In this document: positions 60,387 through 62,702 of the stretch, piece by piece
Layout of the letters: each line of letters opens with the position of its first letter
How positions within the stretch are numbered: the first letter of the stretch is position 1
DNA from: Escherichia coli
GTDB taxonomy: Bacteria; Pseudomonadota; Gammaproteobacteria; Enterobacterales; Enterobacteriaceae
DNA: 64,000 nucleotides
Direction: 5' to 3' (one strand)
NCBI RefSeq assembly: GCF_003018255.1
Contig: NZ_CP027440.1
The notes under the pieces: model-generated
Told to the model about the DNA's origin: nothing
The model's input: only the letters and a program-made list of their open reading frames with translations
Databases searched by the model: none
Translations under genes and position numbers: made by a program

Positions 60387-60616
60387 AAAATATCGTTCCT
60401 GATTACCGTCTTGATATGGTGGGTGAACCCTGCCCTTATCCGGCTGTCGCAACCCTTGAGGCGATGCCGCAGTTAAAAAAAGGGGAGATCCTGGAAGTGG
60501 TGAGCGACTGTCCGCAGTCGATCAATAATATTCCACTGGATGCGCGTAATCACGGCTATACGGTGCTGGATATTCAGCAAGACGGGCCGACCATTCGTTA
60601 TTTAATTCAGAAGTAA
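60383..60616 (+). CDS. yedF: TusA-like sulfurtransferase-fold protein YedF
   Basis: 77 aa with the CPxP motif (GEPCPYP); start overlaps the yedE stop. Confidence 0.9.
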   Translation: MKNIVPDYRLDMVGEPCPYPAVATLEAMPQLKKGEILEVVSDCPQSINNIPLDARNHGYTVLDIQQDGPTIRYLIQK

Positions 60617-60724
60617 TCCCTCATTCCCGCTGTGGCCCACAGCGGGAACATCGTTACCACTCTATCACATAGATTTTACCCGCCCCCTCTCCTATTCTTT
60701 TCAGTGTGCTCTCAGGAGGTTTCT

Positions 60725-61393
60725 ATGTGTGGACGCTTTGCCCAATCCCAAACGCGTGAAGATTACCTCGCGTTTCTCGCGGAAGATATTGAACGCGATA
60801 TTCCCTACGATCCCGAACCTATTGGCAGATACAACGTCGCGCCGGGAACCAAAGTCCTTCTGCTCAGTGAACGTGATGAACACCTTCATCTGGATCCGGT
60901 TTTCTGGGGATATGCTCCCGGATGGTGGGATAAACCGCCGCTGATTAACGCCCGCGTAGAAACTGCCGCAACCAGTCGCATGTTTAAACCGCTCTGGCAA
61001 CACGGTCGGGCAATCTGTTTTGCCGATGGCTGGTTTGAGTGGAAAAAAGAAGGCGACAAAAAACAGCCTTATTTTATCTATCGCGCTGACGGACAACCTG
61101 TTTTTATGGCCGCGATAGGTAGCACACCGTTTGAGCGTGGTGACGAAGCCGAAGGATTTTTGATCGTCACTGCGGCGGCAGATCAAGGTCTGGTAGATAT
61201 TCATGACCGCCGCCCGCTGGTTCTGTCGCCAGAAGCTGTACGGGAATGGATGCGGCAAGAGGTTGGCGGTAAAGAAGCCTCAGAAATTGCTGCCAGTGGC
61301 TGTGTGCCAGCAAACCAGTTCACCTGGCACCCGGTATCGTGCGCGGTGGGTAATGTTAAAAACCAGGGAGCGGCGTTAATTCAACCTGTTTGA
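60725..61393 (+). CDS. yedK: SOS-response associated peptidase (SRAP) YedK; abasic-site DNA-protein crosslinking enzyme
   Basis: Real start MCGRFAQ at 60725, preceded by SD aggaggt at 60714-60720; the ORF-track start at 60632 is an upstream extension; 222 aa. Confidence 0.93.
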   Translation: MCGRFAQSQTREDYLAFLAEDIERDIPYDPEPIGRYNVAPGTKVLLLSERDEHLHLDPVFWGYAPGWWDKPPLINARVETAATSRMFKPLWQHGRAICFADGWFEWKKEGDKKQPYFIYRADGQPVFMAAIGSTPFERGDEAEGFLIVTAAADQGLVDIHDRRPLVLSPEAVREWMRQEVGGKEASEIAASGCVPANQFTWHPVSCAVGNVKNQGAALIQPV

Positions 61394-61503
61394 TAAGCCT
61401 GGAGATTATTGATCAACAATACTGCGTCATAAGAAATCTCTATTAGACAAAGATTTCAGTACCTGTTGGCATATTGCAAAAATAACACCAATACGGAATC
61501 GTC

Positions 61504-61983
61504 ATGTTCACGATTAAAACAGATGATCTCACCCATCCAGCAGTGCAAGCATTAGTGGCTTACCATATTTCCGGCATGCTGCAGCAGTCTCCCCCCGAAA
61601 GTAGTCATGCTTTAGATGTGCAAAAATTACGTAACCCGAAAGTGACATTCTGGTCAGTATGGGAAGGCGAACAACTCGCAGGAATTGGTGCGCTGAAGTT
61701 GCTGGATGATAAACATGGCGAACTGAAATCAATGCGTACCGCGCCAAATTATTTACGTCGGGGTGTCGCCAGTCTGATTTTACGCCACATTTTGCAGGTC
61801 GCCCATGACAGATGCCTTCATCGCCTGAGCTTAGAAACGGGTACACAGGCTGGATTTACGGCCTGCCATCAACTTTATTTGAAACATGGATTCGTTGATT
61901 GCGAACCGTTTGCTGATTATCAACTTGATCCGCACAGTCGATTTTTGTCATTGACGCTATGCGAAAATAATGAATTGCCATGA
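61504..61983 (+). CDS. yedL: GNAT-family N-acetyltransferase YedL
   Basis: 159 aa with acetyl-CoA binding motif (RRGVASLILRHIL). Confidence 0.88.
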   Translation: MFTIKTDDLTHPAVQALVAYHISGMLQQSPPESSHALDVQKLRNPKVTFWSVWEGEQLAGIGALKLLDDKHGELKSMRTAPNYLRRGVASLILRHILQVAHDRCLHRLSLETGTQAGFTACHQLYLKHGFVDCEPFADYQLDPHSRFLSLTLCENNELP

Positions 61984-61990
61984 GCCAGAC

Positions 61991-62032
61991 GCAGCACATT
62001 CTTGCATTCGACGTGCTGCGCCTTTATTTATT
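61991..62032 (+). terminator. Rho-independent terminator downstream of yedL
   Basis: Stem gcagcac (61991-61997) / gtgctgc (62013-62019) followed by a T-rich tract cctttatttatt. Confidence 0.65.
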
Positions 62033-62387
62033 ATCAGCCGCAAATGTCTTGTCCTTAGACGCTCTTTCCACATGCGCCACAAGAAACCTCTATTCCAGTG
62101 ACACAATTATGCCTGATTATTTCCCTAGCCCGGAATATGAATAAAAACATCAAATAAGATGAAATTATCAAAATATTAATGTTGCGTCTGAGGTCGTAAC
62201 AACATCCGACGTGGTGATATGTCAAATGAGACACTCTGATGGTCAAAGGGTTTATCGCGTTTACAGATCGTGGATGGCAGAAAACTTTCAGAATCAGGTT
62301 TCCATTTTAAACCAGAAATTAAGTGAGTTTGTCCCATCCATGCCCCACGCGGTGAGATCGGATGTAATCAACAACAGGTTACAAAAC

Positions 62388-62702
62388 CTACACCTGCATG
62401 CTCATCACTTCCTGATACGCCGCCACCAGCTTATTACGCACCTGAATCCCCATTTGCATTGAAACTGAGGCTTTTTGCATATCGGTCATCACATCGTTTA
62501 ACGCCACGCCGGGTTCACCGAGAGTGAATTTTTCTGCCTGCGTGCGGGCGGCTGTTTGTGTATCGCTTATGCGATCGAGCGCGGCGTGCAGCTGCCCGGC
62601 AAAACTAATGGTCGGTTGTGGCAGTGATTCCTGTGTACGCGCACTCATCGCCGTAGCCTGTAACTGGCTGATAACCCCTTCAATCCCCTGTATCGCTGAC
62701 AT
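62388..62702 (-). CDS. fliE: Flagellar hook-basal body protein FliE
   Basis: ORF 62388-62732; start placed at [22 protein letters not shown] (104 aa). Confidence 0.96.

Follow-up and report, generated by a model that had tools for sequence, protein, structure and literature searches.

The RefSeq record of Escherichia coli K-12 MG1655 gives the gene order yedL, yedN (pseudogene b4495, 1,129 bp, minus strand), intG (pseudogene b1936, plus strand, annotated to 'cryptic prophage PR-G') and fliE, and the gene list in PMC10652928 agrees with this order. E. coli O157:H7 has two intact espR copies, espR3 and espR4, in the same interval, carried on a 1.94-kb tandem unit. E. coli UTAK-1 carries a whole P22-like prophage of 38.6 kb (with int, xis, portal, capsid and tailspike genes) that is bordered on one side by fliE and on the other by an old integrase scar; beyond the scar come an intact leucine-rich-repeat gene of the EspR type and then yedK. 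The interval is empty in Citrobacter werkmanii and in Citrobacter amalonaticus ku-bf3, where yedF is 60–83 bp from fliE and no integrase DNA is present.

Here we describe the yedL–fliE interval of another E. coli strain, using a 64-kb stretch of its DNA that we refer to in its entirety as the window. The initial annotation of this stretch placed yedN and intG between yedL and fliE in K-12, an order that the MG1655 record bears out, and proposed that the compact junction seen here lacks both and is the unoccupied form of a locus that takes up foreign DNA in other lineages. The gap is indeed compact and yedN is absent, and the locus is a hotspot for foreign DNA; however, an integrase remnant is present and the site is not the unoccupied form.

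Organization of the yedL–fliE gap

In the window yedK (60725–61393) and yedL (61504–61983), both on the plus strand, are followed by a gap and then by fliE (62388–62702, minus strand) and fliF. The yedL stop (61983) is separated from the fliE stop (62388) by 404 bp with a GC content of 41.8%, compared to 50.6% for the 64-kb window, in line with the AT-rich gap of about 400 bp originally described. The left border, yedL, is an open reading frame for a GNAT N-acetyltransferase, is annotated as yedL in E. coli JNE120442, and has 96% DNA identity to K-12 yedL; the right border, fliE, is likewise supported by an open reading frame and by the JNE120442 annotation. JNE120442 is 99.7–99.8% identical to the window in this region, and PGAP assigns it an identical gene set together with an 'integrase' pseudogene, marked as partial, where the window has positions 62223–62363, the sole gene that PGAP calls in the gap. 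The longest yedK reading frame begins with a GTG at 60632, 31 codons 5' of the annotated ATG at 60725 (positions 60632–60724 being extra), and the PGAP start in related genomes is the ATG.

The first 50 bp of the gap contain a predicted intrinsic terminator of yedL (61987–62036, plus strand) that is conserved in the alignment with K-12. It consists of a GC-rich hairpin, GCGCAGCAC / GUGCUGCGC, with a U-rich tract after it; the RNA fold has an energy of −14.7 kcal/mol, with the stem at 61987–62023 and then CUUUAUUUAUUAU. A consensus promoter and terminator scan of the gap returned no promoter and also missed the yedL terminator, probably because the loop is too long for the scan. In strain H9Ecoli (L092 1623–1679, approximately window 62002–62058) PGAP places a CDS of 18 codons, named 'cyclic lactone autoinducer peptide', on top of the yedL terminator, and this is probably a spurious call.

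A phage integrase remnant abuts fliE

The right half of the gap is the intG pseudogene of K-12, a remnant of a phage tyrosine integrase. When the translation of the open reading frame at 62211–62462 was compared with phage genomes by tblastn, the best match was to Escherichia phage IdasGreatGrand (83.7% over 49 aa, E 6e-20), followed by Enterobacter phage CobraSix, with the integrases of Stx phages as more distant matches. Conversely, the IdasGreatGrand integrase has a single significant tblastn match in the 64 kb of the window, at 75.9% over 54 aa (E 1.9e-20). The remnant, intG' (62208–62369, plus strand), is a pseudogene fragment corresponding to the last ~54 codons (aa 378–431 of 434) and includes the region of the catalytic tyrosine. 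The matching phage region is the extreme C-terminus of an annotated integrase of 434 aa, encoded by the 3' end of int, and an excisionase gene adjoins this gene. Host DNA captured by a phage is an unlikely source of this similarity, because the matching sequence falls at the 3' end of an int gene that is itself intact.

At the DNA level the similarity to the phage is 86% over 185 bp and extends past the integrase stop to position 62407, within the last six codons of fliE, so that it takes in a phage-derived spacer between the end of the integrase and fliE (62370–62387, plus strand). Alignment by blastn shows that the window has an 11-bp deletion relative to the phage, located between 62371 and 62372, and the lost bases, ACAAGCATAGT, include the TAG stop and the last integrase codons. 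It is through the loss of this stop that the open reading frame at 62211–62462 reads through into fliE antisense. A functional integrase is not encoded here: only aa 378–431 of 434 are represented, stop codons lie upstream, and the native stop is deleted.

Window positions 62190–62468 are colinear with K-12 intG at ~94% identity. They form part of a gapless block (62119–62688, 94.2% identity) that covers intG and fliE of MG1655, and the annotated intG coordinates fall inside this block, which establishes orthology with b1936. The two remnants share their position at the fliE stop, strand, frame and point of N-terminal truncation, as well as the 11-bp deletion and the read-through into fliE. 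They differ in what lies to the left, in that K-12 has the yedN pseudogene 150 bp away from intG, whereas in the window the region downstream of yedL joins at 62122|62123. A Pfam search found no integrase domain in the reading frames of the gap; both Pfam and NCBIfam are silent on the integrase because the fragment is too short for their models, and tblastn against phage genomes was needed to identify it. We also compared the scar with IntD of DLP12, as strain NGF1 carries a DLP12-like emrE-ybcL-ybcM segment at this locus, and rejected it as the origin since no similarity was found.

These data overturn two parts of the initial annotation. The integrase remnant that it reported missing is evident from the colinearity with K-12 intG, the PGAP call and the tblastn matches in both directions (E 6e-20 and 2e-20), and the reading frame at 62211–62462, thought to have no recognisable features, is the frame of an integrase C-terminus. 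A protein match within 62055–62387, which had been named as an outcome that would speak against the original reading, was obtained, although the matched item is a fragmentary pseudogene and does not qualify as a functional gene.

The 3' end of fliE is a phage attachment site

The phage similarity ends in an attachment core (62388–62407) made up of the fliE stop codon and the last six fliE codons, which are common to the phage attP, and 29 nt of the region (62372–62400) are identical to the phage sequence 3' of int. In UTAK-1 the core is present at both attL and attR, and attR also holds the old scar with its 11-bp deletion. The serine codon of the core is TCC (the phage type) at the UTAK-1 attL and AGC (the host type) at attR, and the comparison of attL, attR, attP and the window therefore places strand exchange within TGATG (window 62403–62407). 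This codon, the third from last in fliE (62400–62402), is AGC in the window, in K-12 and in S. arizonae; the UTAK-1 attL and several further Escherichia genomes have TCC there, like attP. The codon present may record the side of the crossover that gave rise to the last fliE codons.

The window resembles the UTAK-1 attL and IdasGreatGrand (PP925829) in that the core is in the 3' end of fliE and the 3' end of int faces it, and its scar is similar to the old scar of UTAK-1. Unlike these phages, it keeps only ~54 of the 434 integrase codons and has no excisionase, prophage body or attR. The core occurs once in the 64-kb window, with no second copy that could represent attR, and the other att arm of the phage has no similarity to any part of the window. 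Thus no attR survives, and the locus contains a scar only and no resident prophage.

This attachment site is still in use in E. coli and Citrobacter. Among the matches listed for the phage int gene, seven E. coli genomes have a full-length integrase abutting fliE, and C. amalonaticus AUH has a full integrase at fliE. The allele in the window would itself be a usable attB for IdasGreatGrand/P22-like phages today, since its core is intact and the UTAK-1 phage integrated beside a scar of this kind. Among the papers covered by our literature search on the intG/fliE attachment site, yedN/yedL and espR3/espR4, none dealt with this att site.

A single indel distinguishes the interval from that of K-12

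The yedL–fliE interval of MG1655 is 1,620 bp in length, so K-12 does not have an equally short junction. Alignment of the window with MG1655, as suggested in the initial annotation for locating the insertion point, gives two blastn matches (60600–62122 and 62119–62688) that overlap by 4 bp and flank a 1,212-bp segment present only in K-12. This segment consists of yedN together with 79 bp 5' of its start and 4 bp past its stop, and within the gap the window and K-12 differ by this one clean indel at 62122|62123 (62119–62126 with its surroundings). The yedN/espR3 cassette is found at this point in K-12, O157:H7, SMS-3-5 and UTAK-1, and the window strain has nothing there. No trace of the cassette was detected elsewhere in the 64-kb window: blastn with the 1,212-bp K-12 segment gave no significant match, and a tblastn search for a remnant of yedN/EspR3, a DUF5503 leucine-rich-repeat effector, gave a best E value of 0.13 at an unrelated position. 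The absence of yedN noted at the outset is therefore correct.

The locus of yedN in K-12 and of espR3-espR4 in O157:H7 is the same interval as in the window, with the same flanks on both sides of the cassette; the window differs from the two-copy O157:H7 arrangement in having no espR at all. The breakpoint is identical in all of the compact alleles examined (the window, NRZ14408, H9Ecoli and O128:H27) and in all of the occupied alleles examined, which indicates that one event separates the two states. Nor is the compact form a product of chance or an assembly artefact, since 1,146 complete E. coli genomes out of 5,426 share the junction: in these a 121-bp probe over 62122|62123 is contiguous and yedN is lacking.

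The espR/yedN alleles are themselves divergent, far more so than the flanking core genes. K-12 yedN (L003 3224–4352) has only 83–84% DNA identity to O157 espR3 and espR4, and the UTAK-1 espR copy is 93–95% identical to the O157 genes.

Diversity of the yedF–fliE interval in E. coli

We observed at least six arrangements of the yedF–fliE interval in E. coli. Form A, that of K-12, is yedL-yedN'-intG', and form B, that of O157:H7, is yedL-espR3-(intG' copy)-('yedL)-espR4-intG'. Form C, yedL-intG', is that of the window. Form D, yedK-intG', is without window positions 61453–62055, which contain yedL, and is represented by O128:H27 and, by the same short junction match, by O26:H11 and O121. Form E, found in NGF1 and APEC E18005, has yedK, a porin gene or an IS, ybcM, ybcL, emrE and an int remnant, and form F, found in UTAK-1, is yedK-espR-intG'.

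Several of these forms have further features of their own. In O157:H7 NE 1169-1 (L005 6253–10167) espR3 and espR4 lie in the 1.94-kb tandem duplication, the copies of which are 95% identical, and the tandem unit also doubles the 3' two-thirds of yedL and the integrase scar. The form E loci are those of NGF1 (L006 3847–8147), which we take to belong to phylogroup B2, and of APEC E18005 (L007 3708–8136), and carry either the porin gene or an IS200/IS605 element with TnpB. Their integrase remnant keeps other codons, with aa 210–277 fused to aa 386–434, and emrE, ybcL and ybcM are genes of prophage DLP12 in K-12.

The frequencies of these forms vary widely. A 351-bp probe that includes the 3' end of yedL was covered in 151 of the 5,426 genomes, which have the form of the window; form C accounts for ~3% of genomes and form D for ~18%. 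The region is wholly absent from ~2,730 of the 5,426 (about half), and the two of these that were examined carry form E.

A repeat search identified a 22-nt imperfect direct repeat flanking yedL, with the left copy at 61423–61444 and the right copy at 62073–62094 (both plus strand; 19/22 identical). In UTAK-1, which has no yedL, the two matches to the window overlap by 23 bp over this repeat, and we read the overlap as what would be one hybrid copy. Form D, by comparison, has a 603-bp deletion (window 61453–62055) and keeps both copies. The junctions of UTAK-1 and form D are different, and hence losses of yedL at this locus have left at least two distinct junctions.

The empty site and the interval in other species

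A scan for FliE with one genome per species returned 80 loci, and among the loci examined the empty arrangement was seen in Citrobacter only. The short sequence between yedF and fliE in C. werkmanii and C. amalonaticus ku-bf3 can form hairpins and appears to us to be REP-like. Salmonella arizonae and diarizonae have ~0.8 kb between yedF and fliE, also without integrase DNA. In every Escherichia sampled (E. albertii, E. whittamii, Escherichia sp. E1V33 and two divergent 'E. coli') integrase-derived DNA starts straight after the fliE stop. The empty Citrobacter junction shares with the window the yedE-yedF and fliE-fliF flanks and the conserved 3' end of fliE, and differs from it in the lack of integrase DNA, yedK, yedL and espR.

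The window does not have the unoccupied form of the site, because integrase-derived DNA abuts the fliE stop and contiguous yedF and fliE are found only in Citrobacter. The original proposal thus fails on the retention of an integrase/attL scar against the fliE stop, although it was right that the interval takes up foreign DNA.

The intervals of E. whittamii, the divergent 'E. coli' and E. albertii (L013, L015, L016 and L026; 10300–13400) contain no yedK between yedF and fliE. Instead they encode a 134-aa protein and secreted, membrane and periplasmic proteins of 133, 204 and 215 aa respectively, and at one of these loci yedL is only 80% identical.

Polarity of the yedN indel

We infer from comparison of the alleles that the compact junction is probably a deletion derivative and not a site that was never filled. 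The 11-bp deletion at the end of intG' serves as a marker for the order of events. The inner int' end of the O157 tandem unit is without it, whereas every fliE-proximal copy has it, those of the compact alleles included. This distribution implies that the espR unit was duplicated before the 11-bp deletion arose, and that the compact alleles would descend from sequence that already carried the deletion. Deletion of the cassette is also favoured by the occurrence of occupied forms in SMS-3-5, O157 and K-12, which we take to be members of phylogroups F, E and A respectively; phylogroup B1, to which we assign O26:H11 and O121 and in which form D is common, presumably nests among these. Two further points favour it: the loss of yedL with two junctions shows that deletion is a mode of change at this locus, and inverted repeats, a target duplication and a transposase are all lacking at the ends of the cassette.

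The alternative is the earlier view, in which the window keeps never-occupied ancestral sequence at 62122|62123 and yedN/espR3 was inserted in other lineages. The cassette edges are tight (4 bp past the stop and 79 bp 5' of the start), gene-sized and common to all occupied alleles, which runs counter to deletion insofar as it suits an inserted unit equally well. Insertion would also agree with the lack of any espR residue in the compact alleles, with the fact that these alleles are common (1,146/5,426) and diverse, and with the extreme divergence of the espR alleles (83–84% between K-12 yedN and O157 espR3/4), which could be imports from outside. It is, however, at odds with the order of events implied by the 11-bp deletion, with the occupied state of SMS-3-5, O157 and K-12 (phylogroups F, E and A, as assumed above) and with the absence of a mobility signature on the cassette, and we regard it as rather unlikely. 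Even if yedN was inserted, the presence of the integrase scar means that the locus is not 'unoccupied'.

Other observations affect the confidence with which deletion of the cassette can be favoured. The compact alleles differ from one another by ~6% across the flanks, such that both states must be old, and the 11-bp marker, which lies 250 bp from the indel, could have become separated from it by recombination. The junction bases are uninformative as to direction, because the microhomology is only 1–4 bp and the NRZ14408 compact allele is one base off precise excision. No outgroup examined has espR at this locus, and the outgroups are of no help on polarity.

Coding potential of the gap

It is highly improbable that the gap encodes a product of its own, be it a small RNA or a small protein from the reading frames at 62211–62462 or 62055–62246, for although both frames exist and 62123–62387 is conserved at ~90–95% among the E. 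coli forms, the first frame is an integrase fragment fused to fliE antisense by stop loss, the second (minus strand) spans the indel point and is consequently disrupted in every occupied genome, four gap reading frames gave nothing significant with Pfam and NCBIfam, and PGAP calls only the partial integrase. The decision in the initial annotation to call neither frame a gene was sound. A search of the gap with Rfam gave only a sub-threshold match to CssrB (20.8 bits relative to a gathering threshold of 76, E 0.11), which lies across the terminator on the opposite strand and is a chance match. On the strand downstream of fliE, predicted folding is not stronger than that of shuffled sequence (z = −0.14). 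The gap has no apparent working gene or RNA, and its roles are most likely passive, as the 3' flanks and putative terminators of the convergent yedL and fliE genes and as an attachment core.

Discussion

The best explanation of the compact junction is that an ancient prophage integrated into the last codons of fliE, and that the 404-bp gap would be its worn-down left end (the attL side). Read from right to left, the locus consists of the att core within fliE, ~180 bp of DNA from the phage with the last ~54 integrase codons (intG), the stop of which was lost to the 11-bp deletion, ~150 bp of AT-rich spacer, and the yedL terminator. The only difference from K-12 is that a single-gene cassette, yedN/espR3, is missing at 62122|62123; this is an orphan type III effector gene, and is a pseudogene in K-12. 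Its absence reflects one old event, seen in about one fifth of E. coli genomes, and this was most likely a deletion by illegitimate recombination. As a whole, this combination of a decayed prophage left end, deletion of yedN and passive roles seems to us quite likely to be correct.

A broader interpretation is that the entire content of the yedF–fliE interval in Escherichia (yedK, yedL, espR3/yedN and, in lineages such as that of NGF1, the alternative set porin-ybcM-ybcL-emrE) is the residue of repeated phage integrations at one fliE attB. Both yedL and yedK, a well-studied DNA-repair gene, would then be domesticated prophage cargo, and single genes would come and go as cassette-like units with short repeats at their ends, of which the 22-nt pair flanking yedL is an example. 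We offer this as a tentative possibility that is perhaps somewhat doubtful.

The features described here are already known, having been annotated in K-12 and by PGAP, and the locus is an ordinary decayed phage-insertion site. The finding has little import beyond annotation, where the 'featureless' reading frame turns out to be the known intG pseudogene, and a short gap alone does not imply an empty site. The yedF–fliE interval is a multi-allelic hotspot, and recognition of it as such is useful for pangenome and prophage annotation and bears on how the presence or absence of espR3 and espR4 is read in typing studies.
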